A program made the translations under genes and the position numbers. Source: Alphaproteobacteria bacterium (GTDB lineage Bacteria; Pseudomonadota; Alphaproteobacteria; Bin95). Taken from it: a stretch of 64,000 nucleotides of DNA. Positions 5,469-51,319 of the stretch are shown piece after piece (the first letter of the stretch is position 1; each line of letters starts with the position of its first letter). Under the pieces are notes generated by a model. It was not told where the DNA came from. It saw only the letters and a list, made by a program, of their open reading frames with translations, and searched no databases. The stretch is taken from NCBI GenBank assembly GCA_041687435.1, contig JAWLBX010000007.1, positions 33,108-97,107 of the forward strand, written 5' to 3'.

Positions 5469-5477
5469 GGCGAGTTG

Positions 5478-5879: not shown

Positions 5880-5881
5880 GA

Positions 5882-9054: not shown

Positions 9055-9090
9055 CGAAGAGTGCCATCCCGTCTGCAGCGCAGGCAAATA

Positions 9091-11026: not shown

Positions 11027-12070
11027 TTAGCAGATGCGCGGCAGTTGCTCGCCGTTCGGCAAGCGCAGGCGGCGACTTGAGCCATAGGGGCTTTTAAGCA
11101 CGACGGCACCGGTTTGATCCTCGCTTACCCGGCCGATCGCGCGGGCTCCACCGAAACGGTGCATGATGGCCACCGCTTCCTGCGCTTGGTTGGCTGGCAC
11201 ATAGGCGATGAAACGACCTTCGTTCGCCACATGCATTGGGTCGAGCCCGAAAAGTTCGCAAGCATTCCGCACCGGCTCGCTGACCGGGATCGCGGCGGTT
11301 TCCACTTCGAGCGCCAATTGTATGGCCTCGGCGATCTCCACCAAGCCCGCCGTCAGACCGCCGCGGGTCAGGTCGCGCAGGCAGTGCAAATCGATCCCGT
11401 GTTCGATCAGCGCCGCTACTGTCGGCCATAATGGGGCACAGTCGCTTTCCAACGGCCGGTCGAACGAAAGGCCAGCCCGGGCGGCCATGATGGCGATGCC
11501 ATGCCGGCCGATATCACCCGACAGCAGGATGGCATCGCCGGGCTGCACCGCCTCCGGCAACGGCCGGGCCGGAGTCCGCACCCGACCAATGCCGCTGGTG
11601 GTGACGAACAGGCCATCGCCCTTGCCGCGCTCGACCACCTTGGTGTCGCCGGTAACAACCCTGGCGCCGACCGCCGCCGCGGCCGCTGCCATCGAGGCGA
11701 TTACCGTCCGCAGGTCGTTGATAGGAAAACCTTCTTCCAGGATCAGGGAAACGGCGATTTGCCAAGGTTCCGCGCCGCACATGGCCAAGTCATTGACAGC
11801 GCCATTGATGGCAAGCGTACCGATGTCTCCGCCGGGGAAAAATAGCGGCTGCACGACATGCCCATCTGTCGTGAAGGCCAAGTCACCTTCTCCACCCGGA
11901 AAGATTGCGCCATCGTGATTCTGCTCCAGAAGCGGATTGCGAAAGGCGGGCATGATAATGTCGCGGATCAGATCCTGCATCATGCGGCCGCCACCGCCAT
12001 GGGCCATTTGGATTCGGGGGATGTCCGTGTCCGATAGCGGGCAATTCAGCCCGGCTTGGTCGCCACTCAT
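11027..12070 (-). CDS. hypE: [NiFe] hydrogenase maturation protein HypE (carbamoyl dehydratase)
   Basis: PurM-like fold with the diagnostic C-terminal PRIC. ATG 12070 overlaps the hypD stop (ATGA). Confidence 0.95.
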
Positions 12071-13167
12071 ACTGCGGCACCCTCCCATTTTCGGTAAAGG
12101 TGATAGGCTGCACAAGCTCCCTCCGACGAGACCATGGTGACGCCGAGCGGATGCTGCGGTGTGCATTCCCGTCCAAAGGCCGGGCAATCATCGGGCCTAG
12201 CCTTGCCCTGCAGCACCAGACCGGCGATGCATTGCGAACCAGCGGGCTCATGGCCGTCGACGGGGCCGAAACGGTGTTCGGCATCGAATGCCTTGAATTC
12301 CGGTCGAAGCGCCAGGCCGCTGGCTGGAATTCGGCCAAGCCCGCGCCAGTCGCGGTCAACCTGCGTGAACACCTGTTCGATGAGTTGGCGGGCGGACATG
12401 TTCCCTGCGGCAGCAACGGCCCGCTCGTAGACATTCTCCACTCTGGCCTCGCCGGCTTCCAACTGGCGGACGGCGGCAAGGACACCGGCCAGGATATCCA
12501 CGGGCTCGAACCCGGTCGCAACGATCGGCACATGGCGCGTTGCGGAAATCGGTTCGTAGGCGGAGGTGCCCATGACCGTGCAAACATGCCCCGCTGCCAA
12601 AAACCCATCGATCAGGTGGTCTGGCTCGGCCAGCAGCGCTTCAAGTGCAGGTGGCACCAGAACCTGCGCCACCAGCACGGAGAAGTTGCGCAAACCCTGG
12701 TCGTGCGCCAGCCGGACTGCCAAGGCGTTTGCGGGCGCGGTCGTTTCGAAACCGACGGCAAAGAATACGACTTCGCGATCTGGCTCCTGGCTCGCTATTC
12801 GGACGGCATCGAGCGGCGAATAAACCGGGCGCACATCCGCGCCGCTGGCCTTCATTTCCTCCAACGTGCCCGTCGTGGCAGGTACGGGCAACATGTCAGC
12901 GAAGGTGCAGAACACGACGCCCGGCTCGCCCGCAATTTCCACTGCCTTGTCCAACACCGCCGCAGGCGTGACACAGACCGGGCAGCCGGGGCCGTGCAGC
13001 AGCTTCACCCCCTCGGGCAGCAACTGGTCCAGCCCAAACCGCATGATGGCGTGGGTCTGGCCGCCGCACACCTCCATGATTGACCAGGAACGGGTAACCG
13101 TCTCGCCAATGGCCTTGGCCAGATGAGCGACGGCGTCGGGCGCGCGGAATTCGTCGCTGTACCTCAT
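12067..13167 (-). CDS. hypD: [NiFe] hydrogenase maturation protein HypD
   Basis: Contains MEVCGGQTH and [10 protein letters not shown] motifs. 366 aa. ATGA overlap with hypC. Confidence 0.95.
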
Positions 13168-13394
13168 TCGGTGATCCCGGCGGCGTTCAAGGTTTCAAAC
13201 GTTCGCGCGGCAGCAGCCTCGTCAAGGCGGGCGATTGCGACACCGACATGGACGATAACATAGTCATAAACCACCGCATCCGGCACGAAAGCCAGGTTGA
13301 CTTCACGCACCACACCGCCGAAATCTGCGCGGCCCGTACGCTCCAATCCCTCGCCCCAGATATCGGTCAGGCGTCCGGGCACGGCCAGGCACAT
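13164..13394 (-). CDS. hypC: [NiFe] hydrogenase maturation chaperone HypC
   Basis: N-terminal MCLAVPG motif. 76 aa. Confidence 0.9.
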
Positions 13395-13397
13395 GGT

Positions 13398-15713: not shown

Positions 15714-15977
15714 TCAGTCCTCCGTCTCGATGCTGCGCAACAGAATAGCCTCCGCATTGGGATCAGTGATGTCGTCCGAGGTTTCGCACGTCAGGCGCGC
15801 CCCCTCTGCCAGCGTACCGGCGGCGGCTTGGTCGAAATGTTCCTGAAAATGCGCCGGCGACATGTGCGACATCGCACCCAGCCAGACCGAAACGCCGGTA
15901 ATGCGCCGGGCGTCAGCTTCTGCTGCGAGATCCGTGATCTTGTGCATCAGATCGCGCATCAACCCAGCTTCGTGCAT
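15714..15977 (-). CDS. hypA: HypA-like nickel metallochaperone lacking the zinc-finger domain
   Basis: 87 aa. It starts [14 protein letters not shown], where MHE is the Ni-binding N-terminus of HypA/HybF, and it ends ILLRSIETED like the HypA C-terminus. There is only one Cys and no CxxC pairs. The stop abuts the hypF start. Confidence 0.65.
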   Translation of the reverse strand: MHEAGLMRDLMHKITDLAAEADARRITGVSVWLGAMSHMSPAHFQEHFDQAAAGTLAEGARLTCETSDDITDPNAEAILLRSIETED

Positions 15978-16429
15978 GTGGCTTCTCCGATCATGTGCAT
16001 GATTTCTTGGACGAGGGTTTCTGCCGCTGCCTTAACCGGATGGGACAATGGCGCGCCGGCATCGAAGCTCTCGGCCTCGACGCCGTAGACCGTCAACGCC
16101 AGCGGCAGGCAATCGATTGCGCGTGCCAGTTCGATAGCAGCGCCCAGGCCGAATCCGTGGGTCGAAACGGCACCGAACACTTCGGGCAGAGCCGTGGTTG
16201 CGGCATTGAAACGGTGGATCGTGCCGGGTTCCGTGCCACTGGCGCAGGCATCGACAACAATCACCCGTTGCCACCCTTCCCAGGCGGGCAGCAACTCGGC
16301 GGGGTCGCCCTGCAAACAGAGCGTCCCGCCTCCCGGCAGATGTTCTTGCTCCAGGCAGGCGACGACGAACGGGCCGACACCATCATCGCCGCGTTCGGGG
16401 TTGCCGATACCGATGACGAGTGGCGTCAT
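15959..16429 (-). CDS. Hydrogenase maturation endopeptidase (HyaD/HoxW family)
   Basis: Contains [16 protein letters not shown] and VVDA...G motifs. 156 aa. ATGA overlap with the large-subunit stop. Confidence 0.9.
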
Positions 16430-17733
16430 GCAGCCCCCTTTTCATCGCGCTCCAGCGTCAACTGCAAAAAGTGAGTGGCGCACGAGATACAGGGGTCGTA
16501 GTTGCGAATGGTCTGTTCGCAGCGCTGGCGCAGTGCATCATCGGACAATGCCAGATTGGTCGCGATCACACCGCGCAGATCGTCCTCGATACTCGGCTGG
16601 TTCTGCGAGGTCGGCGGCACGATCTTGGCCTCGCGGATCAGCCCGTCGGCGCCTATGTCGTAGCGGTGATAAAGCAGCCCACGCGGCGCCTCGGTCGCCC
16701 AGCAGCCGCTGGCCTCGGATGGCATCACCTCGATCGCAGCAAGTTCCGGCGGCGCGTAGGCCTCGACCAGCCTTAGCGCCTCGCCAAAAGCGTAGAATAC
16801 CTCCACCAACCGCACCAGCAGGCTCTGATATGGGTTGCAGCAGACCGGGCCGAGACCCGCAGCCCTTGCCGCGGCCTGCACGTCCGCAGGCAGGCAATCG
16901 AAATTCAGGGCGTAGCGGGCGAGTGGGCCGACCAGATAGGCGCTGTCATCGGCAATCAGGTGCGAGTGGAGCGCGGTCGATTGCGGCTCATGGGATTCCG
17001 CGAAATGCTTTTCGTATGCATCGCCGGCAATATCGAGCCCGCGGGAAGAGACAATTCGGCCCGCGTTCATCGGGTATTCGTCCGCGGCGCGCAGGCTGAC
17101 GAACTGATAATCGCGCTCGAAATCCGGATAGTCGAGCCCTGCCGCCCATTGCAGCGCCTCCGCCGCGGCATCCCGGCTCCAGGCGATTTCATCGCGCAGC
17201 GCTGCTATCTCATCCCGCCTCGGCGTGCGGTAGAAGCCGCCGACCTTGACGTTGATCGGGTGAACCTCACGCCCGCCCACGGCGGCGATGATGGCGTTCC
17301 CTGCCTTTTTCATGCGCAGAGCCTGCTGCACCAACGGCGCGTTGGTCTTAGCCATCTCCACCACGCTGTCACAGCCGAGAAAATCCGGCGCATGCAGCAT
17401 AAAAACATGCAGCACGTGGCTCTGAATCCACTCGCCGCAATACAGCAGCCGGCGCAGGTCTCGCAGCGGTTGCGGCAGGCTGATGCCGCACGCAGCCTCC
17501 ATCGCATGAACAGCGCTCATTTGATAGGCGACCGGACAGATGCCGCAGATGCGCGCAGTTATATCAGGCGCTTCACGGAAGTCGCGGCCGCGCAGCAACG
17601 CTTCGAAATAGCGGGGCGGCTCGAAAATGTTGAGCTCGACATGCTCCACCTGACCGTTCGCTATGCGGGCGTGCAGCGCGCCTTCGCCTTCCACCCGGGC
17701 CAGATAATCGACCTTGATGGTGCGCTTGGTCAT
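16426..17733 (-). CDS. hyhL: [NiFe] hydrogenase large (alpha) subunit, group-3b-like
   Basis: N-terminal RICGICP and C-terminal DPCISCATH motifs, plus a 14-aa tail that would be the protease substrate. ATG 17733 ([18 protein letters not shown]) overlaps the small-subunit stop. The 534-aa version in the ORF track has a spurious extension. Confidence 0.9.
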
Positions 17734-18539
17734 GATGTCCCCTTCCCGCCCGATGCGTCGAGGCGTTCGCTTTCGGCCCGAAAGGCCGGAGCGTTGGCAT
17801 TGAAGGTACGCAAATAGCGTGCAATTTCCCCTGGCTGCATGCCATGGGCCGCCAACATGTGCGAAAGCGCCGGCATGGCCGCACCAGCGCTCGGACCAAA
17901 GCAGCCGTAACAGCCGCGGTTGTAAGCGGGGCAGATCGCACCGCAGCCCGCATGGGTGACCGGGCCAAGGCAGGGCGTGCCATGGGCGACCGCCACGCAG
18001 ACATTGCCGCGGCGCTTGCACTCCGTACAAACGCTATCGCCACTGAGAACCGGCTGTTTGCCGAAAAGGAACGCGCCCACAACCTCCAGCAACTGGTGCT
18101 TGTCCACCGGGCAGCCGCGCAATTCGAAATCAACCGCGACATGGGCGGCAATCGGGGTGGAGGTAGCCAGCGTCTCGATATAATCCGGCCGGGCATAGAC
18201 CGCGCGCGTGAATTCCTCCACATCGGCAAAATTGCGCAGCGCCTGGATGCCGCCAGCGGTGGCGCACGCGCCAATCGTCATCAGCGCCTTCGACTGCTCA
18301 CGAACATGCAGGATGCGCTCTGCATCGTGCGATGTGGTGATCGAGCCCTCGACCAGCGAGAGGTCGTAGGGGCCTTCAACAACCTTGCTCGATGCCTCCA
18401 TAAAATAGGCGATCTCCACCGCGCCGGCCAGCGAGAGCAATTCGTCCTCCAGGTCGAGGATCGAAAGCTGGCAGCCATCGCAGGAAGCAAACTTCCAGAC
18501 CGCGAGTTTTGGTTTGGTCCGCGGTGCCGTGGCCATCAT
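17730..18539 (-). CDS. hyhS: [NiFe] hydrogenase small (delta) subunit, NuoB-like
   Basis: Has the proximal-cluster motif [16 protein letters not shown], with further Cys clusters in the C-terminus. The start is at the ATG pair 18539/18536. Confidence 0.85.
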
Positions 18540-28665: not shown

Positions 28666-28812
28666 TCAGAGGTTCAGATAGCGGAATTCCGCCGTCGGTT
28701 CGAACGACAGTGCCAGAATGCCTAGAAACAGTGCTGCGTACCAAAGCGCGCATAGCGCAATTGCCAGGGGCCGCGGCAGATGTTCGGACAGCAGACCGAA
28801 GATATTGTACAT
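28666..28812 (-). CDS. 48-aa single-TM microprotein with C-terminal F-x-Y motif (DltX-like candidate)
   Basis: The sequence is MYNIFGLLSEHLPRPLAIALCALWYAALFLGILALSFEPTAEFRYLNL. Its ATG shares one nucleotide with the MBOAT stop (minus strand reads TGATG at 28814..28810). It falls below the size cutoff as a separate ORF and is visible only as the tail of track ORF 28666..29055. Confidence 0.55.
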   Translation of the reverse strand: MYNIFGLLSEHLPRPLAIALCALWYAALFLGILALSFEPTAEFRYLNL

Positions 28813-29972
28813 CACAGCCACCAATACACGAAGATCGTGCCGTAAACATCCAGTACATCTGGAAAAGTTGGCTCGCGGACGATAACAAAGCTGAGCCAGA
28901 CAAAATGTACGGTCAGAAGAATACAGAAAGCATCCCGGAATGGCCGTAGCACCGGGTTCCGGATGGCAATGCCGCGCCGGTCCTGGAAATTGTTCACGGC
29001 CGCCCAAATCATGGTCGCAACGCCGTGAACGGCACCCCAGACTAGATAACGCCAACTCAATTCGTGCCAGACGCCAATAAATACCATAGTGCCAAAAATC
29101 GCGGCATACTGGTTTCGGGACATTGCAAAAACCAGCGAGAACACATGCTCACGGGCAAAACTGGTCAGTGAAATATGCCAGTTGCGCCAGAATTCGGAGA
29201 TGTTCTTGGCGAGGTAAGGCCAGTTGAAATTCTCCATAACCCTGTAGCCCAGCAGCAGCGCAAAGCCAATGGCCACGTCGGAAAAGCCTGAAAACTGGAA
29301 ATAAAGATTCAGGCCACGGATGACCACATCCAGATAGGTGGCGAGCGCCGCATTGGTTTCGTGTAATGCCGCCACATGCGACGCCAACACTCCTTCGATC
29401 AGGTAATTGCCCAGGATCACGATCTTGGCGTAGCCATAGAGAATGCGCTGTAATCCGAGTGAAATATTGCTGGCATCCCAGCGCTTGTATTTCAAGTCGT
29501 TAAAGAACGCCGGAAAACGATGGATTGGCCCGACGACAATCGTTGGCAGAAAGAATTGATAAAGAAAGAAATCTTTAAGGCGATGCGTCTCTAGCGTACC
29601 CTTGTACCGGTCAATGATATAACTCAGGAAGCGGATGGCATAATATGCCATTCCCAAAGGCATGACGAAATCACGAACAACCCCGGGCTCCATATCCATG
29701 CTGGGCAACATTGCTTTGAAGCCGAGCAGTATTGCAATGACCAGTCCGCCCGCCGCCATGGCCCGCCATCCGGCCAACGGATTGGCATTGCACAAGAAAT
29801 AGACGGCTACGGTCAATCCGGTCAGCGACACGGCCGATATGGGCGAGTACAGCGCCAGAAAGCCCAGCGTGATGACGCCCAGAAACACGTCCCGCCACGC
29901 CTTGGGCAGGATCCAGTAGACCGAAACCACGCCAAACAACCAGCCCAGCCATTCCACGGACAGAAAATGCAC
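28812..29972 (-). CDS. MBOAT-family membrane O-acyltransferase (DltB/AlgI-like)
   Basis: 386 aa and polytopic. Contains FWRNWHISLTSFAREHVF and GVWHELSWRYLVWGAVHG, the MBOAT conserved-His regions. GTG start 29972 is preceded by GGAGGG. Confidence 0.9.
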   Translation of the reverse strand: MHFLSVEWLGWLFGVVSVYWILPKAWRDVFLGVITLGFLALYSPISAVSLTGLTVAVYFLCNANPLAGWRAMAAGGLVIAILLGFKAMLPSMDMEPGVVRDFVMPLGMAYYAIRFLSYIIDRYKGTLETHRLKDFFLYQFFLPTIVVGPIHRFPAFFNDLKYKRWDASNISLGLQRILYGYAKIVILGNYLIEGVLASHVAALHETNAALATYLDVVIRGLNLYFQFSGFSDVAIGFALLLGYRVMENFNWPYLAKNISEFWRNWHISLTSFAREHVFSLVFAMSRNQYAAIFGTMVFIGVWHELSWRYLVWGAVHGVATMIWAAVNNFQDRRGIAIRNPVLRPFRDAFCILLTVHFVWLSFVIVREPTFPDVLDVYGTIFVYWWL

Positions 29973-30204: not shown

Positions 30205-32064
30205 TCAGCCAGCCGGCTTCATCTTCCGCTCGACCAGATCGACAACATCACTGATTTTGCTGACATTCATGATCTCGCGTGGCCGCAGCTTGATGGAGAA
30301 ACGTTCTTCGACGGCGGTCAGAAACTCGATATGCGCCAGCGACGTCCAGCCCGATAAAGTATCGGGATTGGATTGCAGCGTGACAGTCTCCGCCGGACAT
30401 TTGAAAAACTCGGCGGCCACCTGCGCGACACCGCTCAGAATATCCGAATTGTCGTTTGCCTGCGCGGAACTGGCATGAGCGTTCCGGAGTTCTTCCCGCA
30501 CCGCCTCGATCAAAACCTTGCCGGCCGGGCCGCGTGGCAGTTCGGTCATAAAATGGACGGTTCCGGGAATTTTCTCCCGCGCCAACCGCTCTGCACAGTG
30601 CGCGGCCACGTCGGCGACCGTGAGTGAGGGACCGTCAGGCACCTCTAGGCAACACGCAAGGCGCTCGCCCCAGATTGGGTCTGGCATGCCAAAGGTCACG
30701 GCATCCTGCACGCCGGGGATGGTGCGCAGGACGGACGTTACATCTTCCGGATAGACGTTGATGCCGCCGACAATGATGACATTCTTCTTGCGCCCGACGA
30801 TCCGGTAGAAGCCGTCTTCGTCTAACGACGCCAGATCGCCGGTGTGGAACCAACCGTTTTTCAGCACCTCCGCCGTTTCCACCGGGGCGCGGAAATAGCC
30901 GCGCATGACATGGGCGCCGCGCAGAACCAACTCGCCAACACTGCCTTGCGCAATGTCGTTGCCCTCATCATCGACAATGCGGGCCTCGCAGTCGATTGGC
31001 TTGCCGACGGTGCCGATCTTCCGGGTTTCCGGCGTTGGCCCACAATACAGCGCCTCGCAAACCGTTTCCGTCAGGCCATAAACGTTGACGACCTGCACGC
31101 CGTAGCCGTTTTCGATCCGCTCCCAAATGGCGGGGTCGAGGAAGGCTGCGGTCGAGATGATGAATTTGAAATCACCCGTGCGCAGGCAACCCCCGCACTC
31201 ATCGACCAGATTCCCCATCAGGCCGAGAATGGTCGGCACCGTGATAAAATGGGTAATTTCCAGCGTGTAGATGCTGCGAAGGACCGGCTCCAGCGTATCG
31301 ACACGCAACGGCTGCGGTCTGTGCAATGTAGCACCGGCACAGAATGCCAGCACCGCGCCGTGGGTCAGACCGTCCGTGTGGTGCATCGGCAACAGGTTGA
31401 GCAAGTTTACCTTCTCATCGAAACCGTAGTGCCGCACGAAGGTCTGTTCCTGAGCGAACAAATTCTTGTGCGTGATCTCGACACCTTTCGGCCGCGATGT
31501 CGTGCCGGAGGTGAACAGGATATATGCCAGCGCATCGTCGGTCAGGTCGCCAGGCAACTGCCCCTCTTCCAAACCGGAAAGGCATGCGGGGTAGGTCTCC
31601 GCCGCCGGGGCGCTTTGACGGCGGAAAAGACGTCCGATCCCCGCCTTGCTTTGCGTTTCCGTAGTGCCGCCATCGATGCGAACCGCCACATTCGGTGCAC
31701 CATCCGACTGATCCAGCGCATGCCGGGACAGGTAGGATGCATCCGCGAACAGCCCCTGTGCATCGGACGCACGCATCAGCGATTCGGCTTCCGATAACGG
31801 CGCGTGCGGGTCCAATACGATGGTGGTTAAGCCGAGGCGCAGGAACGACAGAAAGAGCATGATCAGCGAGCGATCATCCTCCGTGATCACAATCACTCTG
31901 TCGCCAGCCTTCAGGCCCAAATTGGAACACAGGGTCGCCGTTTTCCGCACGCCGGCGAAAAGCTCAGCATAGGCCAGTGGCCGCGGGCCCGCCAGCAGGG
32001 GCTTGCGGCGTGGCGTGGCCTGCTCAAGCCGCTCGAACGCGGCAATCCAAGGAGAAAGAGCCAT
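30205..32064 (-). CDS. Adenylate-forming ligase fused to a C-terminal acyl/aminoacyl carrier domain (DltA-DltC-like fusion)
   Basis: Adenylation core motifs: LFTSGTTSRPKG (A3), YGLTE (A5), GELVLRG (A6), WFHTGDLA (A7), GRKKNVIIVGGINVYPEDV (A8) and PRGPAGKV (A10). The C-terminal ~80 aa form a carrier domain with LSGWTSLAHIEFLTAVEERF, where Ser is at the phosphopantetheine position. Confidence 0.9.
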   Translation of the reverse strand: MALSPWIAAFERLEQATPRRKPLLAGPRPLAYAELFAGVRKTATLCSNLGLKAGDRVIVITEDDRSLIMLFLSFLRLGLTTIVLDPHAPLSEAESLMRASDAQGLFADASYLSRHALDQSDGAPNVAVRIDGGTTETQSKAGIGRLFRRQSAPAAETYPACLSGLEEGQLPGDLTDDALAYILFTSGTTSRPKGVEITHKNLFAQEQTFVRHYGFDEKVNLLNLLPMHHTDGLTHGAVLAFCAGATLHRPQPLRVDTLEPVLRSIYTLEITHFITVPTILGLMGNLVDECGGCLRTGDFKFIISTAAFLDPAIWERIENGYGVQVVNVYGLTETVCEALYCGPTPETRKIGTVGKPIDCEARIVDDEGNDIAQGSVGELVLRGAHVMRGYFRAPVETAEVLKNGWFHTGDLASLDEDGFYRIVGRKKNVIIVGGINVYPEDVTSVLRTIPGVQDAVTFGMPDPIWGERLACCLEVPDGPSLTVADVAAHCAERLAREKIPGTVHFMTELPRGPAGKVLIEAVREELRNAHASSAQANDNSDILSGVAQVAAEFFKCPAETVTLQSNPDTLSGWTSLAHIEFLTAVEERFSIKLRPREIMNVSKISDVVDLVERKMKPAG

Positions 32065-32088: not shown

Positions 32089-33180
32089 TTAGCCACAAGC
32101 GGCGCCGAACTTCGACCCGTTGCTCTCGATCACATCGGCAAGCCGGTCGCCGATGGCGGCGCCATAGGCAGCAGCGCCTTCAGGGGCAAAATGGTTGGAG
32201 TCGGCGAAGTAGGATGGTTTCGGCAGGATCAACTCCCACCACCGGATGACCGGAGTTTGATAGGTCTGACCGAACTCGGTCAACGCGGCATCGAAGCGCT
32301 GACGGGTATCGATGAGTCCTTCATACGACATGTAGGGCATGAAAAAGACATCGGTTTTTGCAGCCTCTTCAAACAAACGCGGGTCCAGTCCATCCCGCAG
32401 CCAGCCGGGGATGGACATGACGACCGGCAGGGCGCCCGCACCGATCACAACATCCCGCATCGCAGTCAGTTCGGCCGTATAGTCAGCGGTCAGGTCATAG
32501 CGACTGGCATCCAGCTTTCCGGCATTCGAATGGGCAGCGCGTTGCCGGCGAATGACCTCTGCATTCATTTCCAACTTGGCCCAAAAGCGGGAAACTTCCG
32601 CCAGCATTGACGGGGAATAGTGCGGGTCTCGGTGCAAGTTTGCGGCAATCGCCAAGTCGTCCAGCCGCGCGTTGAACCCGCCCGCCCATACAACGACAAG
32701 ATCGGGTTCAGTCTTCGCGACGTTGTGCTCGAAATAGGTGGTGGTTTGCGGCAGGCTGAACCCGGGAACGCCGGCGTTTAAAAAATCGAAACGGCAGTTC
32801 GGCAGGCGGTCCCTGGCGGCCGACATGGCCTGCGCCACCCAGGTCTCGCTATCGTCGGTTACGTAAGGATCCAGCGTGCTGGAGGTGCCAATAAACGCCA
32901 CCCGGATGCGCCCGGGCGGCTTGGGCATGTCCAATTCCTCACCCCGGAATCCTAAGCTGTTGAATTGCAACTTCCCAAAAGCCGCATTTGGCCGGGGAAT
33001 GCGCAAGTCGGTTTCCGGATCGATGAAAAAGGTCTCGGACTTTTCCACATCGGCCTGACCGCCGAATTGTCGCCATTGCTGCAGGAACAGTGCGACCTCA
33101 CCGGCAAGAACCCAGCCAAAAGCCAGAGCGGCAATGACCAGACCAGTCAGAATTTCCTTTTGCCGCAGGGTTAAAATCAA
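32089..33180 (-). CDS. Membrane-anchored SGNH/GDSL-type hydrolase/acyltransferase (DltD/AlgJ/PatB-like role)
   Basis: N-terminal TM (LTGLVIAALAFGWVLAGEVALFL). SGNH block I is VAFIGTSST, block III-like is LNAGVPG, and block V is FADSNHF (DxxH). TTG start at 33180. Confidence 0.75.
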   Translation of the reverse strand: MILTLRQKEILTGLVIAALAFGWVLAGEVALFLQQWRQFGGQADVEKSETFFIDPETDLRIPRPNAAFGKLQFNSLGFRGEELDMPKPPGRIRVAFIGTSSTLDPYVTDDSETWVAQAMSAARDRLPNCRFDFLNAGVPGFSLPQTTTYFEHNVAKTEPDLVVVWAGGFNARLDDLAIAANLHRDPHYSPSMLAEVSRFWAKLEMNAEVIRRQRAAHSNAGKLDASRYDLTADYTAELTAMRDVVIGAGALPVVMSIPGWLRDGLDPRLFEEAAKTDVFFMPYMSYEGLIDTRQRFDAALTEFGQTYQTPVIRWWELILPKPSYFADSNHFAPEGAAAYGAAIGDRLADVIESNGSKFGAACG

Positions 33181-33479
33181 CGCTCTTTCCCCAATTTCGA
33201 ACGAATTTTCGTTAAGGGACTATTCATAATCGAACGCCTGTTTGCGAGCCCGGCTTCATCGGGACGTGCCAGACGCCGACACTGGCGGTGACCGGATACA
33301 ATCCTGAACTAACCTAAAAACTTTACATTTTCCGACCAAAACGCGCAAGCTGCTGAACTTGCTACCGGAAGCCGCGATCTCTCGGAATGGGCACGGCAAG
33401 CCGGAGCGCGTCCGATCGGGCGCTGAAGCGCGGACCCGCTTCGGGTATTTGCCGAGCGAGGCAGCGATTTGATAGAGGA

Positions 33480-33650
33480 ATCGAGGTGCAAAAAATAATT
33501 AAGGCAAATTATTGCTTTTTCCAATTTATACTTTGAATATTTATATTACTATTACAGATTATGAACAAAAAAAACTCTATTACTACAAATAAAATTCCGT
33601 TTTATCCTAAAATTCCCGTTGATATTTGCGACGCCGCAGTGATCGATCGT
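33480..33650. promoter_or_regulatory. Extremely AT-rich divergent control region between the Dlt-like operon and the NRPS-like operon
   Basis: This is the most AT-rich stretch in the window. It contains direct repeats TAAAATTCC (33590-33598 and 33608-33616) and TATTACTA (33544-33551 and 33578-33585). Confidence 0.5.
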
Positions 33651-33717
33651 CTTGCGCCCCCGCTCAAAAGGATGCACTAAAAGCCATGAACAAGCTTTCT
33701 GCCGGGAGACTGACAAA

Positions 33718-35526
33718 ATGTTGAATTCGGCTTCGACATTTTGCGCATGGATGGAACGCCACGCGACCGAACACCCGGATAGGGTAGCAATCGCGTCACT
33801 CGATCAACCGCCGCTTACTTATCGTGAGCTTTTCGCTGCTGCACAAGATTTACGCAAAGAGTTGCTGGCTGCGGGCGTGGGTGCGGATCAGCGTGTTGCG
33901 CTGGTCGTTCCTGATGGCGTGCAAATGCTGTATGGCATGATCGCAGTTGGCGCCACGACCCAGACTATTCTGACACCTGCCACCATGGCAGAAAATGAAT
34001 TTGCGGAGTTGTTACGGCGCGCATCCTGCGACTTGGCCATTATTCACGAAGCCTCACCAGAGAATTTCCGCCGTGCGGCGGCCAATTGCGGAACCCCGAT
34101 CTGGACCGTGCGTCACGCGCCGGATGCGCCGGCGGGACTTTGGCGCATTGTGGATGCCGAAAAGGCCCGTTCTGGCGCGCCGCCGCGAATCCCGGATGTC
34201 GATGACGTCGCCATCATCCTGAGTTCGTCCGGCACCACCGGGCAGGCGAAGATCGTGCCCCGTACCCATCGCAATGTCTGTCACTTTAGCGACGCAATCA
34301 TCAAGGACCTCAACCTAACGCCGGACGATATTACCATCATTGCCACCCCCAACCATCTGAGCATGGGAAGCCAGGCTACAGGGCTGTTGAGCCTGCGTAT
34401 GGGCGGGCTGGTGGTCTGCAACGATGGACCTTACGAACCAGCGAACTATCTGGCCCTATTTGAACGCTACAAACCCACCTTCATAACGGCCAGCCCCGTC
34501 TATTTCCGCAGCATCCTGGCAACCATCGACGCCAAGACGCCGCCCGTCGACGTTTCCTCAGTGCGGGCAATCCGAGCCAGTTCCGACCTGATGCCCGACG
34601 ACATCCGGCATGCGCTCGAGCAGAAATTCGGTGTCTCGGTCGACTCCAGCTATTCCTCCAGCGAGGCTTTGAGCATCGCAGTGCGCACCAGCGCCGATAA
34701 CGACCGCCCGCCAACCTATCTGGGCCGCATCACATCGGGTTCTGTCCGCATTCTGGACGATAATGGAAACCAGGTGCCCCAGGGCGAGGTGGGCGAAATT
34801 GCCGTTTCAGACCCCGCGGTGTCACCCTACTATATCGATGATGAGGAACTGACCGCTCGCGCCTTCAAGGATGGCTGCTATCGCATGGGCGATCTGGGCT
34901 TTATCGATGCCGAGGGCGGATTGCACTTCGTCAGCCGCAAGGCCGACATCATCAACCGCGGAGGCTACAAGATCGCGCCGAGCGAGGTGGAGCGCGCGCT
35001 GAGCGATCACCCAGCGATCGCGCAGTGCAGCGTTTTCGGAGTACCGCACCGCCGCCTGGGCGAGGATATCGCCGTGGCGGTCGTGCCGAAGCTGGGCCAG
35101 ACGCTAGACGAGGCGATGATGCGGCAACATCTGGCAAGCCGGCTTGGTCCCGGCAAGTGGCCGCGGCGCCTGTTTTTGGTCGACGACCTACCTCGCAATA
35201 CCGTCGGCAAGGTTTTGCGGCGCGAATTGACGGCAAGGTTTTGCGGCGAGGCTGCCCAAGAGGCTGCCAGCACTGGCCCGGCCGCCTGGACCTCGCCCGA
35301 AGTCTCCTTGGTTATTGGCCTGTGGTCCTACATTTTGGAGGTTCCCACAGTCGGCGCAGATACCAGTTTCATCGAGGCCGGCGGCGATTCACTCCAGGCC
35401 GGCATTCTTCAGGCAGAAACATCGGCATGGTTCGATTTGAAGCTGGAGCCGGACTTCATTCTTTCGCCAGACTGCACACCGCGCGCGATTGCCGAGCGGC
35501 TGCAGGCGAGCAACGCATCTGCTTGA
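33718..35526 (+). CDS. NRPS-like adenylation-thiolation (A-T) didomain protein
   Basis: Adenylation motifs: ILSSSGTTGQAKIV (A3), YRMGDLG (A7), SRKADIINRGGYKIAPSEVE (A8) and PRNTVGKVLR (A10). The C-terminal PCP has FIEAGGDSLQAG. ATG 33718 (MLNSASTF) follows GGGAGA. Confidence 0.9.
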   Translation: MLNSASTFCAWMERHATEHPDRVAIASLDQPPLTYRELFAAAQDLRKELLAAGVGADQRVALVVPDGVQMLYGMIAVGATTQTILTPATMAENEFAELLRRASCDLAIIHEASPENFRRAAANCGTPIWTVRHAPDAPAGLWRIVDAEKARSGAPPRIPDVDDVAIILSSSGTTGQAKIVPRTHRNVCHFSDAIIKDLNLTPDDITIIATPNHLSMGSQATGLLSLRMGGLVVCNDGPYEPANYLALFERYKPTFITASPVYFRSILATIDAKTPPVDVSSVRAIRASSDLMPDDIRHALEQKFGVSVDSSYSSSEALSIAVRTSADNDRPPTYLGRITSGSVRILDDNGNQVPQGEVGEIAVSDPAVSPYYIDDEELTARAFKDGCYRMGDLGFIDAEGGLHFVSRKADIINRGGYKIAPSEVERALSDHPAIAQCSVFGVPHRRLGEDIAVAVVPKLGQTLDEAMMRQHLASRLGPGKWPRRLFLVDDLPRNTVGKVLRRELTARFCGEAAQEAASTGPAAWTSPEVSLVIGLWSYILEVPTVGADTSFIEAGGDSLQAGILQAETSAWFDLKLEPDFILSPDCTPRAIAERLQASNASA

Positions 35527-35663
35527 GTTTGATCAACAAGGCCCCCGTTCTGGTATAGTAGACTACCGTTGGATTTCCGTGCTGGCGTTTGATTGCGCCG
35601 GCTAATCTCGACGATAGCGCGATCCCAAGCGCCCGCTTTGCAACCGAAAATACAGGTACGAAG

Positions 35664-37199
35664 ATGGCCGCCTCAACCAATGATAATATCCGCTGGCCCG
35701 ACCCGATTACCGCGGCCGTTGTCCACCTGTTCGCCTTCCTGCTGGAAAAGCCTGTGCCCAAGCCCGATGAAAGTTTTTCGGCGCTGGGCGGCGATGCGGC
35801 CTTGGCCGAGCGGCTGCGGCAGGCAATTGCCGGCTCGTTCAGGGTAAGCTTGCAGGAGCACGCGCTGGCTGACCTGACATTCACCCCCGCAACAATCGCC
35901 GGCGAAATCATGGCGGCGAAAGCGGTAGAAACGGAACAGTCCGGCCCCACGGTCGCCCGCACTCGGGACTGGCTGCCCGCCCTGCCCTCGCAAGCCGGCC
36001 TTTATTCCGTCGATCGCGTGACCCGCGGCGAGGCTCGGCCGACCGTTACCGGCGCCCTGATCGTAGAAGGCAACTTCGACCGCGTCCGGCTGGACGCTGC
36101 GGTTCAGCAGGCGATGATGCGTCACGACGGCCTGCGCCTGCGCTTTGAAACCCAGGACCGGCAAGTCATGATCCGGCCAGAAAAAGACGCGCCCGGTATC
36201 GAGGATTTCAGCGCATCCGCAAACTCGGAAGCCGACCTGATCCGTGCAGCCGCTAGCCATGCGGCCGAAACGCTGGACCTGGATCAGGGGCGCGGCGTCC
36301 GCTGGCTGCTGTGCGAGCAGGGCAGCGGACAACAAGCCCTTATCGTCGTGGCTCACCACGCCGTCGCCGACGCCATGTCGAAATCGTTTCTGTTACGCGA
36401 GGTTGGCGAGACTTATGCAGCGGGCGGCTCACTCAACAGCATGCCGCTTGCCCCATCCTTCATGGCCATCGCGGCGGAACGGGCTGCCATGCTGGCCAGC
36501 CCCAAGGCGGCACAGGACGAGGCCTATTGGCGGCAATACCTGAACCCGCTGCCAGGCGATCTGGCCGTTCCAGGTATGATCGAGGAAAGCGAGGGCGCGG
36601 AGTTTGAGCGCCGGGTGATTGCCTTTGATTTGGACACAGCGGCCGTCGAACGGTTGGTTGCAAATGCGGCAGCGCAATCAGCCACGCCCTTTATTGCCTT
36701 CGCCCGCGTCATGGCCCGCTGCTTTGCGGCAGAGCGGGATGGCGTTGTCTCCGTCCCGATCAGCAACCGCGACCAGCCAGGCCGGCAGAATGCCATTGGC
36801 TGCCTGATGCAGACCGTGCCCCTGCGCCTGTCCGGCCGGGACGGCGCACCCTACCCGCGGCTGCGGGAGGAGGTGTCGCAAATGCTTTCCCACTCCGCGC
36901 TGTCCGTGGAGGAATTGCTAACCCGTGGCGTCCTCGCCCGCAAAGGCCTGTTCGAGGCGCCGATTGGTGTGCAGTTCCAGCTGCGCCGCGCGGAATCTGA
37001 AGTGATTGTCGACCGGGCGGACCTGCGCCTGCGGCGGGTCGATCCGGTTCTGGGGATCAATAACCTGCTGCCATTGTCCATCGATATCAAACGCGGCGAA
37101 ACCACCACAATGTTCTGCGATTACGACCCCGGGCTGGTTGACCCGTCCGGGCTCGACTCCATGATTGCAGCTGTCAACGCAGAGCTTTCCAAGGCTTAG
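35664..37199 (+). CDS. Condensation-domain protein with N-terminal degenerate carrier-like domain
   Basis: The N-terminus is PCP-like (FSALGGDAALAERLRQAI...TPATIAGEIM) but has Ala (codon 35796-35798) where the phosphopantetheinyl Ser belongs. A C domain with HHAVADAMS (HHxxxD) follows. Confidence 0.85.
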   Translation: MAASTNDNIRWPDPITAAVVHLFAFLLEKPVPKPDESFSALGGDAALAERLRQAIAGSFRVSLQEHALADLTFTPATIAGEIMAAKAVETEQSGPTVARTRDWLPALPSQAGLYSVDRVTRGEARPTVTGALIVEGNFDRVRLDAAVQQAMMRHDGLRLRFETQDRQVMIRPEKDAPGIEDFSASANSEADLIRAAASHAAETLDLDQGRGVRWLLCEQGSGQQALIVVAHHAVADAMSKSFLLREVGETYAAGGSLNSMPLAPSFMAIAAERAAMLASPKAAQDEAYWRQYLNPLPGDLAVPGMIEESEGAEFERRVIAFDLDTAAVERLVANAAAQSATPFIAFARVMARCFAAERDGVVSVPISNRDQPGRQNAIGCLMQTVPLRLSGRDGAPYPRLREEVSQMLSHSALSVEELLTRGVLARKGLFEAPIGVQFQLRRAESEVIVDRADLRLRRVDPVLGINNLLPLSIDIKRGETTTMFCDYDPGLVDPSGLDSMIAAVNAELSKA

Positions 37200-37338: not shown

Positions 37339-38601
37339 ATGAAACCGCAAATTCTATCGACATTGCCGCACTATACGCGTGCAACGTTCCTGTCTGACCT
37401 GATTGCCGGCCTGACGGTTGCCATGGTCGCGCTGCCGCTCAGTCTCGCCATCGCCATCGCCTCCGGCGCCGATCCGGCCAAGGGTTTGGTCACGGCCATT
37501 GTTGCCGGCTTTCTCATATCCCTGCTTGGCGGCAGCCGGGTGCAGATCGGCGGACCAACCGGCGCCTTTATCGTCGTCGTTTTCGGAGTCATCGCCCAGC
37601 ACGGGTATGACGGGCTGGTCATGGCGACTTTCATGGCTGGTATCATCTTGGTGATCGCCGGTTACATCCGTGCCGGTGCCTTGATCCAATTCGTGCCCGA
37701 AGCGGTGATCAATGGCTTCACGATCGGTATCGCCGTCATAATCGCCACCAGCCAGCTGAAGGATTTCTTTGGCTTGAGCATGGCTTCAGTACCGGCGGAT
37801 TTCCTGGAGAAGGTGCCTGCGCTTTGGTCCGCCGGCGCGACGCTGAGCCTGCCAGCGCTCGGCATAGGCCTCACGACAATGGTGGCGATCGTGGCGCTGC
37901 GGCGGATGTTTCCGCGCTTTCCGGGCCTGATCGTTGCAGTCGCCGCCACCTCCGGAGCAGCGGTCCTGCTAAGCTTGCCGGTGGATACGATCTTTTCGCG
38001 CTTTGGCGCGCTGCCGGATACGCTGCCGATGCCCGCACTGCCGGATATCAGCGTCGAACGGTTCGTCGAGCTGCTGCCATCCGCCTTCATCATCGCATTC
38101 CTGGCAGGTGTCGAATCCCTGCTTTCCGCCATGGTCGCGGACCGGATGATCGAACATACCCACCGCCCGAACGCGGAGGTGCTGGCTCAAGGCTATGCCA
38201 ACATCGCTTCCGCCCTGTTCGGCGGCTTGCCGGCAACCGGTGCCATTGCGCGCACAGCCACGAACGTGCGGGCGGGCGGAAAAACGCCGGTTGCGGGACT
38301 GATCCATGCCCTGGTCGTGCTGGTGGTGATGCTGGTAGCCGCCGACCTGGCTGGCTATCTTGCCCTTCCTGCATTGGCCGGGCTGCTGATGCTGACTGCC
38401 TGGAACATGAGCGAACCGCACAAATGGCGCAGTTATATGCGGGCTCGCCCCTCTGACCGGATGCTGCTGATCCTGACCCTGGTGCTGACAGTTGTCGCCG
38501 ATCTGACGGTCGCCATCGGCGTCGGGGTTGCCGTCGGCCTCGCGATACGCCTGCGCCGCCGCCATGTGCCGCCAGCCGACTGGAGGACCCCGGACCGATA
38601 G
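37339..38601 (+). CDS. SulP-family anion transporter, short form without a STAS domain
   Basis: SulP core is present (FLSDLIAGLTVAMVALPLSLAIAIASG..., GGSRVQIGGPTGAF). The protein is ~420 aa from ATG 37339 and ends directly after the last TM (RLRRRHVPPADWRTPDR). Confidence 0.85.
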   Translation: MKPQILSTLPHYTRATFLSDLIAGLTVAMVALPLSLAIAIASGADPAKGLVTAIVAGFLISLLGGSRVQIGGPTGAFIVVVFGVIAQHGYDGLVMATFMAGIILVIAGYIRAGALIQFVPEAVINGFTIGIAVIIATSQLKDFFGLSMASVPADFLEKVPALWSAGATLSLPALGIGLTTMVAIVALRRMFPRFPGLIVAVAATSGAAVLLSLPVDTIFSRFGALPDTLPMPALPDISVERFVELLPSAFIIAFLAGVESLLSAMVADRMIEHTHRPNAEVLAQGYANIASALFGGLPATGAIARTATNVRAGGKTPVAGLIHALVVLVVMLVAADLAGYLALPALAGLLMLTAWNMSEPHKWRSYMRARPSDRMLLILTLVLTVVADLTVAIGVGVAVGLAIRLRRRHVPPADWRTPDR

Positions 38602-41221: not shown

Positions 41222-42070
41222 TCATGATATAGCCGCGGCGATATGAGCCAGCTCCCATTTGGAGATTTCCGAACGCACGGCTTCTGTGTTCCCTGACTGA
41301 ATCCGCAGCTTCATCAACTGCACGACTTGCGCGGATGCTCCGCCAGGGTTCGCGTTGCTTTGAGCGGCTTTATCCGCCATGGCATTGCATGCAGCCTGAT
41401 TTACAGAGCCGCCCGGGGCGCATTTCGCCATGAATTGCGCAACAAGCCCAGCCTGTTCCTTTTCAAACCGCATCAACTCCTGATTCGAAATCCCAAGCCG
41501 CTCCTGCTGGGCTTGCTTCAGTCCTTCGAATAATTCCTCGTCCGTCGGCTGGACGCTGACCAGCCTCGACCCAGCTTCCGCCAGCTTCCGGGCAGCCATA
41601 CCGGTTGCGAAGTATTGCGCAATTCCGGCCGCGCCCCGGGCCTCGCCACCACTGGCGTCGGCCCCTGCACCACCTGCAAAGTCCGCACCGAATGAGGCCA
41701 GAACCGAATACGTGTCCTCATCATGGCTGCCGTTTTTGCCAACGAACTTCGAACAGGAATCGCCCGCGCCACCAGTTTCGGCATTCACAATCCGAGTGCC
41801 ATCAGAAAGTGTCGTGGTCGTAATCCCGCCCTCGCAAGGTATGAGGGTACCCTGCTGATCCGCCACATTCGGCATCAATGGCATCCAAACCCCTTCCTGC
41901 CGCGCATAGCCCAACGTGAGCGATGGGGTCTGCGTGATCTGGTCCGAGGACACGTCGAACGCCACCTTGGTGTTTGTGCCAAAAATCAGCGTGTTGCTGT
42001 GACGGGGAGTTTCGCAAGCCGCAAGCGCCAGGGCCGACAATGCTGCCGCTAGGGTGATACCGCTACGCAT
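41222..42070 (-). CDS. Hypothetical lipoprotein
   Basis: Signal peptide plus lipobox MRSGITLAAALSALALAAC. It has a Gly/Ala-rich middle and a helical C-terminal half. No family recognised. Confidence 0.6.
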   Translation of the reverse strand: MRSGITLAAALSALALAACETPRHSNTLIFGTNTKVAFDVSSDQITQTPSLTLGYARQEGVWMPLMPNVADQQGTLIPCEGGITTTTLSDGTRIVNAETGGAGDSCSKFVGKNGSHDEDTYSVLASFGADFAGGAGADASGGEARGAAGIAQYFATGMAARKLAEAGSRLVSVQPTDEELFEGLKQAQQERLGISNQELMRFEKEQAGLVAQFMAKCAPGGSVNQAACNAMADKAAQSNANPGGASAQVVQLMKLRIQSGNTEAVRSEISKWELAHIAAAIS

Positions 42071-49538: not shown

Positions 49539-50846
49539 CTAGGCGGTTTGCTCGCGCACCAGTTGGTCGATGGCATCTGCAAAAGCGTCAAGGGTCTGCC
49601 GGACATCGGCTTCTGTGTGCGCCCAACTGATGTAGTGCTTGCCCTCGCTTTTCAAAATGCCACGCTCTCGCATCAACTGATTCCAGCGGGTGGTGAGCAC
49701 CGGCTCACTCTTCGACGAGCGGTAGTCGACCACATCCTTATCGGTGAAAATCACGTCGAACATCGGCGCATCGCCAACCACCCGGGCCTTGAGGCCGGCC
49801 TTGGCGAGCTTTTCTGTATAGCCATCCATCAGCGCCCGGCCGACCGAGAAAATGTGATCATAGGCACCGGGTCGCTTCAGGATTTCCAGGGTCTTGAGAC
49901 CGGCCGCTGCCGCTACCGGGTTTCCGGAAAGCGTGCCGACCTGGGTCATGAATTTGTCCTCGGCCACGGCTTTCTTGTCGAAATGGGCCATGATTTCGGC
50001 ACTCGCTGCGATAGCCGCCAGCGGGAAGCCGCCGCCAATGGCCTTGCCCAGCGTACAGATGTCGGGGATGACGCCGTAATAGGCCTGTGCGCCGCCATAG
50101 GCGAAGCGGAAACCAGTCACCACCTCGTCGAAAATCAGCAGCAGGCCATGCTCCTTGGTGATACGGCGCAGGCCTTCCAGAAAACCCGGCTTCGGGGGAA
50201 TCAGGCGTTGGAACGGCTCGGCCATGATCGCCGCGATTTCATGCTTGTGCTCCTTCACCAGCGCCTCGACCGTTTCCAGGTCGTTGTAGGGTGCCACCAG
50301 CATTTCCGCCTGGACGCTAGCGGGGATACCCGCGCTATCCGGCACGCCTTGTGGAAAGTTGCTGAATTTGGTGGGCGCCAGGCTGATCAGACCGTAGTCG
50401 CTCATGCCGTGATAGCCGCCCTCGAACTTCAGGATCTTGTCCTTGCCCGTATGGGCGCGGGCGAGCCGCATGGCGTAAGCGTCGGCCTCCGACCCGCTGG
50501 AGACAAAGCGAACCTGTTCGGCACAAGCAACGGCATCGACGATTTCCGCAGCCAGCAGAATGCCATCGGCATTGTTAGTGAAATAGGTCGAACCCTTCGC
50601 AACCCGATCCTGCACGACTTCGGTCACTTCCGGGTTGGCATGACCGACGATCATCGGACCGGAACCGATCAGGTAGTCGATATATTCGTTGCCCTCCACA
50701 TCCCAGACATGTCCTGCCAAACCGCGTTCTATGATGATGTCATAGCCGACATTGCCAAACCCACCGGCTGGCATCGCCTTGCGGGCGATTGCAACCAGTT
50801 CGGCCTGAGAAAGACCGGAGGCGCTCGACATTTGGGTATCCGGCAT
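49539..50846 (-). CDS. Class III PLP aminotransferase (glutamate-1-semialdehyde aminomutase-like)
   Basis: Contains SGSEADAYAMRLAR, FDEVVTGFR and the PLP-Lys region TLGKAIGGG. Confidence 0.9.
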   Translation of the reverse strand: MPDTQMSSASGLSQAELVAIARKAMPAGGFGNVGYDIIIERGLAGHVWDVEGNEYIDYLIGSGPMIVGHANPEVTEVVQDRVAKGSTYFTNNADGILLAAEIVDAVACAEQVRFVSSGSEADAYAMRLARAHTGKDKILKFEGGYHGMSDYGLISLAPTKFSNFPQGVPDSAGIPASVQAEMLVAPYNDLETVEALVKEHKHEIAAIMAEPFQRLIPPKPGFLEGLRRITKEHGLLLIFDEVVTGFRFAYGGAQAYYGVIPDICTLGKAIGGGFPLAAIAASAEIMAHFDKKAVAEDKFMTQVGTLSGNPVAAAAGLKTLEILKRPGAYDHIFSVGRALMDGYTEKLAKAGLKARVVGDAPMFDVIFTDKDVVDYRSSKSEPVLTTRWNQLMRERGILKSEGKHYISWAHTEADVRQTLDAFADAIDQLVREQTA

Positions 50847-51319
50847 GAGGGGGTATCCTTGATTGACGGTTAAACTGCGGATGCTCTATCCGCCGCGTCC
50901 GAGCGGCGGGCACCAGCCTGACAATTGGCAGTATCTGCGGCAGCGATCGAAAACAGGTTGAGGCCGAAAACCTCCACTTCCTCCATCATCGCTTCCTCAC
51001 CCGGTGAAATCGGGATGGTGATATAATCCGTTATCAAAGGGCCTTTCTGCAAGCGTTTCCGCACGGAACACGCGCACGCAGAGCGCGACAATGACTACGC
51101 GCAGATTCGCAATAGCCACGTTCGATCGGTCTAAGAATCAGAGTCGACGGTTGCCACAAGTGTCAGCAAAGACCAGATATGAAGGGGAGTTCTGAGATAG
51201 CGATGCCAGAATTTCATCGCGCAGCTTGCGGCGGGCAAGTGGGTCGGCAGCATGATTCTGGCGTTGGCAGGACGGCACCTGCTAACGTTTCCCCCAGCCC
51301 CTTTGCGAATGGAGCATGC

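Follow-up and report, generated by a model that had tools for sequence, protein, structure and literature searches.

What can a condensation enzyme with a single loading partner do beside a machine that acylates cell surface polymers? The question is raised by a stretch of 64,000 nucleotides from an Alphaproteobacteria bacterium (assembly GCA_041687435.1, contig JAWLBX010000007.1, positions 33,108 to 97,107 of the forward strand), here called the window, whose own coordinates are used throughout. Two of its genes resemble parts of a nonribosomal peptide synthetase (NRPS): one encodes AT, an adenylation-thiolation (A-T) protein, and the next encodes TC, a protein with a condensation (C) domain. 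Across an AT-rich spacer they face an operon, here called the cassette, that encodes an SGNH/GDSL-like protein, a ligase-carrier fusion (LigT), a membrane-bound O-acyltransferase (MBOAT), plus a microprotein and that resembles the Dlt operon of Gram-positive bacteria (Table 1). The reading that we favor, tentatively and with somewhat less than even confidence, is that AT and TC form an accessory acyl-building branch of this Dlt-like polymer acylation cluster and that the resulting carrier-bound acyl group is exported by the MBOAT relay. It is supported by the intact domains and motifs of both proteins, by purifying selection on their genes, by the absence of a thioesterase (TE) or reductase (R) domain, by the likeness of TC to junctions between thiolation (T) and C domains, and by the conserved adjacency of the pair and the cassette.

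The original prediction, made from the sequence of the window, described a 602-residue A-T protein with a GGDSL carrier followed by a 511-residue C-domain protein, both facing a Dlt-like MBOAT operon. Pfam domains and motif positions confirmed this architecture. AT matches AMP-binding (1.3e-47), AMP-binding_C (1.4e-15), and PP-binding (2e-07). Its core adenylation motifs SSSGTTGQAK, YRMGDLG, and GK, which contains the A10 lysine, are intact, and the GGDSL of its carrier domain (residues 555 to 559) has the GGxS signature of a phosphopantetheine serine. The mechanically called open reading frame (ORF) begins earlier, at a TTG at 33652, but all homologues are approximately 602 residues long, which makes the ATG at 33718 the probable start.

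AT does not have the features of an A domain that activates an amino acid. In such domains, the Asp of an “FD” in motif A4 (Asp235 in GrsA numbering) binds the alpha-amino group. When AT was aligned with the true A domains of an NRPS on contig L024, which read TFD and SFD, its A4 position read NHLSMG, with Ser in the column of the amino-binding Asp. This Asp is therefore absent, though the A10 Lys is present. LigT reads LPMHHTDG and has Thr at the same position. The closest structures to AT are oxalate-coenzyme A (CoA) ligase (5ie0, 7.7e-54) and malonyl-CoA synthetase (4fuq); oxalate-CoA ligase is also the best structural match of LigT (9.2e-57), and oxalyl-CoA synthetase (6qjz) lies near both proteins. 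The best NCBIfam families of AT and LigT are likewise acyl-CoA ligases, and neither protein has DltA among its top 60 structure matches. The substrates of both enzymes are thus most likely carboxylic acids that lack an alpha-amino group, as far as the sequences can tell, and the N-acyl-aminoacyl or dipeptidyl product first proposed for this locus is unsupported. The likeness to oxalate and malonate ligases, together with a DauA-like transporter gene next to TC, hints that the acids may be small di- or hydroxycarboxylates.

Identity within the AT family falls from 51% straight to 34%. Past this gap are proteins of A-T, A-T-TE, A-T-acetyltransferase, A-T-sulfotransferase, and A-T-SGNH architecture. 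The context of one A-T-SGNH fusion (P0264) lacks an MBOAT gene and is uninformative. AT is also not a recent duplicate of LigT, to which it is 25% identical. A relative at 34% identity (L023/L024, 6859 to 16050) is the loading module of an ordinary multimodular NRPS encoded directly downstream of a phosphoenolpyruvate (PEP)-mutase gene and a Wzt-type ABC transporter, a setting that suggests a phosphonate-containing lipopeptide or glycan-linked compound as the product of that NRPS.

TC matches the Pfam family Condensation (PF00668, 3.5e-35) over residues 103 to 436. Its C3 motif, HHAVADA (residues 231 to 237), retains both His residues and the Asp, with the Gly of HHxxxDG replaced by Ala. The C2 motif RHDGLRLRF and the C5 motif IGCLMQTVPLRL align with those of canonical C domains, and C2, C3, and C5 are invariant across the TC family. 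The assignment of a C domain, which would have been doubtful had core motifs been lacking on alignment, is strengthened by the retention of all three.

The first ∼95 residues of TC form a carrier-like domain, which the original prediction overlooked along with the microprotein gene of the cassette and a second A-T protein in relatives. This domain is up to 35% identical to the T domain of AT. In an AlphaFold2 model of TC, built from a five-sequence alignment and poor outside the carrier-like domain (mean predicted local distance difference test [pLDDT] score of 43.5), residues 11 to 88 have pLDDT values of 70 to 89 and a helix begins right after the GGD. The site where the phosphopantetheine serine is expected reads LGGDAA. 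Of the four homologues, three have Ala after GGD and one has Asp, and no nearby Ser is conserved. Because the serine is replaced and no nearby Ser is kept, this domain cannot be phosphopantetheinylated. Two of the three carrier-like domains at the locus are thus predicted to be loadable, that of TC being the one without a serine.

Several comparisons relate TC to T-C junctions of assembly lines. Residues 17 to 419 align with positions 589 to 1006 of the NCBIfam model PRK05691 (NRPS/polyketide synthase), a region that we take to be the T1-C1 junction of PvdL. The peptidyl carrier protein-C didomain of TycC (2jgp) aligns with TC from residue 27, and PvdL structures are among the solved relatives of TC. 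As a rough proxy for the C-domain subtype, in place of a curated reference set, TC was compared by BLAST with 878 C-type domains from 148 megasynthetases grouped by the preceding domain. C domains that follow A-T gave a median score of 68 bits, N-terminal ones 62 bits, and those that follow an epimerization domain 48 bits. Identity to the sampled in-line C domains was 24 to 32% and never above ∼32%. By this rough measure, TC is probably a deep branch most like the C domains of carrier-to-carrier elongation.

Matches of TC to free-standing enzymes were weak (PapA5 family, 2.4e-07; SgcC5, 4znm, 5e-07), and VibH was not among its structure matches at E values of ≤1e−5. These matches bear on a second reading, somewhat unlikely in our estimate, in which the pair is an independent small-molecule synthetase: the C domain would transfer the acyl group of AT to a soluble or lipid nucleophile to give an acyl-amide or ester metabolite or lipid, and the cassette would be its neighbor through common regulation, a common supply of substrate, or mere synteny. 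Well-established free-standing C enzymes whose acceptors are not carrier bound include VibH, PapA5, and the stand-alone condensation domain of zeamine biosynthesis, so the chemistry has precedents to which the PapA5 and SgcC5 matches point, and it requires no TE. Set against this is the fact that TC resembles the T-C junctions of in-line elongation more than it does PapA5 or SgcC5, with VibH missing altogether at the threshold used.

The facing operon is, to judge from its genes, a complete Dlt-like relay of SGNH protein, LigT, MBOAT, and microprotein, which goes beyond what had been claimed for it because a candidate DltX-like microprotein is present. The SGNH protein, which has 72 homologues, matches Lipase_GDSL_2 below the curated cutoff (4.5e-05); by inspection, its block I is FIGTSST (GTS) and its block V is DSNHF (DSNH). 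Its gene accompanies those of the MBOAT and the microprotein in relatives L001, L005, L008, and L011 and on the P0017 contig. The carrier serine of LigT lies within GWTSLAH. DltA was absent from the top 60 structures and the top 25 NCBIfam families of LigT, which is thus not a DltA-type ligase by these comparisons. The sole NCBIfam match of the MBOAT is DltB (TIGR04091, 1.6e-40), at 139.5 bits against a cutoff of 375 bits.

The microprotein is encoded by an ORF below the usual length thresholds. A counterpart follows the MBOAT gene in every related cassette examined (L001, L005, L008, L011, and L018), with 44 to 88% identity. These proteins are 45 to 49 residues long, their genes overlap or closely follow the MBOAT gene, and in five diverged cassettes they end in FRYLNL, FNYLNF (L008), or FKYLML (L011). 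The acyl shuttle motif of DltX is FXYXXF (PMC12148441). No profile in Pfam or NCBIfam, including DltX, matched the microprotein even at E values of ≤10; its size, position, topology, and motif make it a candidate DltX-like acyl shuttle. Two other sequences resembling the motif were set aside. The MBOAT's C terminus, FVYWWL, was taken as a chance occurrence since its Tyr is not kept in L018, and an 81-residue ORF with FFRYLN upstream of the SGNH gene of L009 was attributed to chance since its DNA does not resemble that of the microprotein gene.

Table 1. Positions of the genes, domains, motifs, and spacer elements in the window
Feature	Position	Strand	Size	Description
AT	33718-35526	+	602 aa	Stand-alone loading protein; ANL adenylating domain and carrier domain
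AT, adenylating domain	~33754-35211
AT, carrier domain	~35311-35502
AT, GGDSL	35380-35394
TC	35664-37199	+	511 aa	N-terminal carrier-like domain and condensation domain
TC, carrier-like domain	~35694-35927
TC, condensation domain	~35970-37196
TC, HHAVADA	36354-36374
SGNH/GDSL-like protein	32089-33180	-	363 aa	DltD/PatB position; N-terminal hydrophobic helix
LigT	30205-32064	-	619 aa	Ligase-carrier fusion, DltA+DltC analogue; Pfam AMP-binding 1.5e-62, PP-binding 1.5e-05
MBOAT	28812-29972	-	386 aa	Short, DltB-sized form; Pfam MBOAT 1.3e-18; conserved His in VWHELSW
Microprotein	28666-28812	-	48 aa	One hydrophobic helix; C-terminal FRYLNL; start overlaps MBOAT stop codon
SulP-family transporter	37339-38601	+	420 aa	STAS domain absent; next gene downstream of TC; Pfam Sulfate_transp 5.4e-79
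Divergent spacer	33181-33717		537 bp	47% GC
Spacer core	33490-33630		140 bp	22% GC
Promoter-like hexamer pair	33469-33496	+
Promoter-like hexamer pair	33518-33547	+
Promoter-like hexamer pair	33537-33508	-

The pair and the cassette are found together beyond the window. Every sufficiently long contig with a TC homologue of at least 64% identity carries the cassette adjacent to the pair, in one of two gene orders. In type A (the window and L001 to L004; TC 78% identical), the cassette and the pair are divergent. In type B (L018 and L020 to L022; TC 64% identical), the genes lie on one strand in the order SGNH-LigT-MBOAT-microprotein-AT-AT2-TC-SulP with intergenic gaps of 146, 37, 57, and 143 bp, and the set has the appearance of a single operon. 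The second A-T protein, AT2, has 601 residues, is 48 to 51% identical to AT, and is encoded between AT and TC (L018, 4764 to 6569; L020, 3570 to 5375); it also has Ser in the column of the amino-binding Asp. Two contigs from one sample, L009 and the MBOAT-bearing L020, adjoin each other on the coordinates of L018, so that the SGNH gene lies upstream of LigT; beyond the SGNH gene are hypE and hypF. The cassette is inverted relative to the pair between the two types and the DNA past the cassette differs, but the adjacency is retained. In the window, hypE, hypD, hypF, and a NiFe-hydrogenase large-subunit-like gene lie at 11027 to 18030 on the minus strand. Since hypE and hypF directly flank the type B cassette, the window and the type B neighborhoods are related but rearranged.

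These arrangements count against an independent synthetase, in that TC stands next to the cassette wherever the contig is long enough to judge and the type B pair lies inside one codirectional array with the cassette, separated by short gaps. An acceptor for such a synthetase would not have to be a carrier-bound acid, and the absence of AT2 from the window would be accounted for. In the window and in L001 there is no second A-T gene, and there is no TE or R domain within the cluster; the plus-strand run of the pair contains, as first described, no TE, reductase, or second A domain, and its next gene encodes the SulP-family transporter. The pair thus lacks the release and acceptor modules of an NRPS assembly line.

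TC belongs to a rare family. Four TC clusters, at 64 to 100% identity, emerged from a word-based search of 5.8 billion proteins, and a fifth, P0181, came from the best 150 matches of an exhaustive profile search over 1.84 billion representatives, so that the family comprises at least five clusters at 90% identity. Those 150 matches are nearly all megasynthetases whose scores are summed over several C domains, so that single-domain relatives below ∼317 bits are invisible among them; only P0004 and P0181 stood out. Among the matches listed from 185,579 representative genomes and the metagenomes of the Joint Genome Institute, scanned with two peptide patterns and hence without strict proof of absence, there were generic C domains at 23 to 29% identity and no closer relatives of TC. 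P0181 is 427 residues long, is 37% identical to TC, reads HHAILDG at C3, and has no carrier-like domain. Its flanks (L019, 2 to 4290) encode an NAD-dependent epimerase/dehydratase, a Gfo/Idh/MocA oxidoreductase (interrupted by Ns), and a D-2-hydroxyacid dehydrogenase, a setting that looks like sugar modification.

Several observations weigh against coupling of the pair to the cassette. Neither the window nor L001 encodes AT2, which in relatives is the obvious acceptor module. Four lineages (L005, L007/L008, L011, and the P0017 contig) have the cassette but neither AT nor TC, a finding that also suits an independent synthetase. The cassette proteins of L005 are 79 to 87% identical to those of the window and thus closer to them than the type B cassette is. 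Because the L005 cassette is so close, the relay does not need the pair, and its specificity is probably unchanged by the pair. P0181, the sole distant relative of TC, shows no cassette on its 4.3-kb contig, and this noncassette setting again fits an independent synthetase. Finally, the loci that bear the pair all come from one narrow, broadly syntenic clade that shares the hyp genes and the SulP gene, and for this reason we regard the conserved adjacency as moderate, only modest evidence, and not as strong. The co-occurrence that the original prediction had named as a check holds in one direction: the pair adjoins the cassette in every informative contig with a close TC homologue, but the cassette does not always have the pair.

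At the position occupied by the pair in the window, L005 (GCA_020638555.1, an Alphaproteobacteria metagenome-assembled genome) has another carrier-based operon facing the cassette (5161 to 9131). It encodes an 81-residue acyl carrier protein (ACP), a TIGR03099-like pyridoxal phosphate (PLP)-dependent decarboxylase, a NoeE-like sulfotransferase, and a TIGR03098-like ligase of the amino acid type. That ligase is 25% identical to AT and is not its orthologue. This placement suggests that carrier-based accessory branches beside the cassette are interchangeable.

The presence of AT2 in type B and its absence from the window and L001 imply an old duplication followed by lineage-specific loss. This raises the possibility, very improbable in our view, that the pair of the window is a decaying, functionless remnant of a larger NRPS-like cluster that has lost its second A-T module. 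TC is indeed the fastest-evolving gene of the neighborhood: between the window and L001, at a synonymous divergence (dS) of ∼0.9, its ratio of nonsynonymous to synonymous substitution rates (dN/dS) is 0.159 as a whole, 0.12 in the C domain, and 0.36 in the carrier-like domain, compared with 0.086 for AT and 0.03 to 0.11 for the cassette and housekeeping genes. Decay is contradicted by the same values, which are well below 1 in lineages without AT2, and both reading frames are intact with all catalytic motifs retained. These ratios indicate that AT and TC are under purifying selection and that the pair is functional even without AT2.

The constraint on TC also bears on whether AT might be a parallel, second acyl donor for the MBOAT relay, giving two decorations, with TC forming no new bond in the product but moving acyl groups between carriers, proofreading them, or docking on MBOAT or LigT through its serineless carrier-like domain. 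The window encodes two and type B loci encode three A-T proteins of one broad ligase class beside a single MBOAT, as a parallel donor would lead one to expect, and the carrier-like domain of TC is conserved, confidently modeled, constrained, and similar to the T domain of AT. The strict conservation of HHxxxD and the other C core motifs and the low dN/dS of the C domain argue instead for real condensation chemistry, and we know of no precedent for a C domain that acts as a carrier-to-carrier transacylase in a Dlt-type pathway. We consider a parallel donor quite improbable.

Should the pair act as an accessory branch that builds acyl groups for the cassette, the pathway could run as follows. 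AT would adenylate a small carboxylic acid without an alpha-amino group, possibly imported by the DauA-like SulP transporter, and thioesterify it to the arm of its own carrier. The C domain of TC would then join this acyl group to a second acid bound to a carrier, at a hydroxyl or amino group of that acid. In the window, LigT's cargo would serve as this acceptor; in relatives, AT2's cargo may do so. The composite acyl thioester would leave through the MBOAT and pass by way of the microprotein Tyr and the SGNH serine, ending on a hydroxyl of a glycan in the periplasm or at the surface. The MBOAT relay is proposed as the exit because it is the sole release route encoded nearby, and the logic of such a relay is established for DltB, DltX, and DltD (PMC12148441). 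A more specific form of this proposal, which we rate as rather unlikely, is that the C domain joins two carrier-bound non-amino acids, probably small hydroxy- or dicarboxylic acids, that the MBOAT, the DltX-like Tyr shuttle, and the SGNH protein place the composite on a Gram-negative surface glycan, and that the Dlt cassette is a general platform for swappable carrier-based branches, a C domain in the window and a decarboxylase with a sulfotransferase in L005.

How does the locus compare with known systems? The cassette appears to have the same five functional parts as the Dlt pathway of Gram-positive bacteria (DltA, DltC, DltB, DltX, and DltD), which D-alanylates teichoic acids: an enzyme that adenylates, a carrier with its serine, an MBOAT of the short form with the conserved His, a microprotein of ∼48 residues that ends in FxYxx[L/F], and a putative membrane-anchored SGNH protein. 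The predicted donor is likewise carrier bound and not an acyl-CoA. Unlike in Dlt, the ligase is fused to the carrier and resembles oxalate- and malonate-CoA ligases rather than being a DltA orthologue, the MBOAT falls short of the DltB cutoff, and the microprotein lacks a DltX profile match. The hosts differ as well: they are Alphaproteobacteria and members of other Gram-negative lineages, in which teichoic acid is not expected. We know of no Dlt operon with a condensation domain. MBOAT/SGNH pathways other than Dlt are without a carrier protein and a DltX-like microprotein (PMC12148441, 2025).

The order of AT and TC, ligase, T, (T), C, is that of NRPS initiation modules in which an acyl ligase precedes T and C, such as the start of PvdL. 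Unlike those modules, the pair is split into two proteins, a serineless carrier domain precedes the C domain, and the window contains no downstream amino acid module, TE, or R domain. Like the free-standing C enzymes VibH, PapA5, SgcC5, and that of zeamine biosynthesis, TC is encoded separately, has a separate loaded carrier, and lacks a release domain; unlike them, it has an N-terminal carrier-like domain, and its similarity to them is weak (PapA5 and SgcC5) or undetected (VibH).

Carrier-based accessory sets beside polymer modification systems are also known from the exosortase A-associated triad of ACP, acyl-CoA ligase, and PLP-dependent decarboxylase (TIGR03098 and TIGR03099), and in this respect the triad and the pair are alike. 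In L005, a triad of this kind with a sulfotransferase fills the position of AT and TC. It differs from the pair in its distant ligase, the L005 proteins score under the curated cutoffs, and the window encodes neither decarboxylase nor sulfotransferase. In Gram-negative bacteria, AlmEFG of Vibrio cholerae adds glycine to lipid A by a carrier-based route with a Dlt-style ligase and carrier. That system differs from the present locus in that transfer is by an LpxL-type acyltransferase and not by MBOAT and SGNH proteins, there is no C domain, and the ligase is of the amino acid type.

Polymer acylation by MBOAT and SGNH proteins has been described as being of two kinds, driven by acetyl-CoA or by the Gram-positive D-alanine Dlt pathway, with the carrier and DltX specific to Dlt (PMC12148441). 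The present locus appears to encode a full relay with carrier and microprotein in Gram-negative marine bacteria, with a ligase predicted not to activate an amino acid, and in one clade this relay is linked with a condensation enzyme and with one or two further loading proteins. The searchable literature on MBOAT with condensation domains, Dlt-like systems, or stand-alone C domains with polysaccharides yielded no account of this combination. The parts are of known kinds, the combination is a new variant, and coupling of the pair to the cassette is plausible but unproven. If the coupling is real, surface polymers would bear composite acyl groups assembled on carriers before export, which would widen surface chemistry and add a use for C domains, and this route to complex acyl decorations of envelope polymers would be one not described before. 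If it is not, the pair would be a rare minimal acyl transfer system.

The SulP-family transporter gene follows TC in both gene orders, in L001 and in L018, with 93% identity over the 57 residues visible in L018. Its best NCBIfam match is the C4-dicarboxylate transporter DauA (2.4e-111, under the cutoff; the model has ∼570 positions), and it may take up the acid substrate. The spacer stands out from the window, which is ∼62% GC overall. Its edges are conserved with L001 and its AT-rich center is not. A scan of the spacer with Rfam gave no match, and a terminator scan found sites no more numerous than in shuffled sequence. Elsewhere in the window, ORFs at 44 to 2413 (+), 4368 to 5687 (+), 41222 to 42070 (-), and 49548 to 50873 (+) have high third-position GC and no Pfam match at E values of ≤1e−5.

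Cassettes without the pair have settings of their own. In L007 and L008, the cassette lies beside sulfotransferase, glycosyltransferase, and Polysacc_synt genes. The ligase-carrier gene of L007 is split by an IS1595-family transposase (11234 to 13936); it is intact in L008 (11234 to 13126), and the SGNH proteins of the two are identical in sequence. Downstream of the cassette in L005 (15457 to 21104) are genes for a large coiled-coil protein, an OmpA-like protein, an EH_Signature protein, and an SNF2 helicase, a set that resembles a Zorya-type antiphage system.

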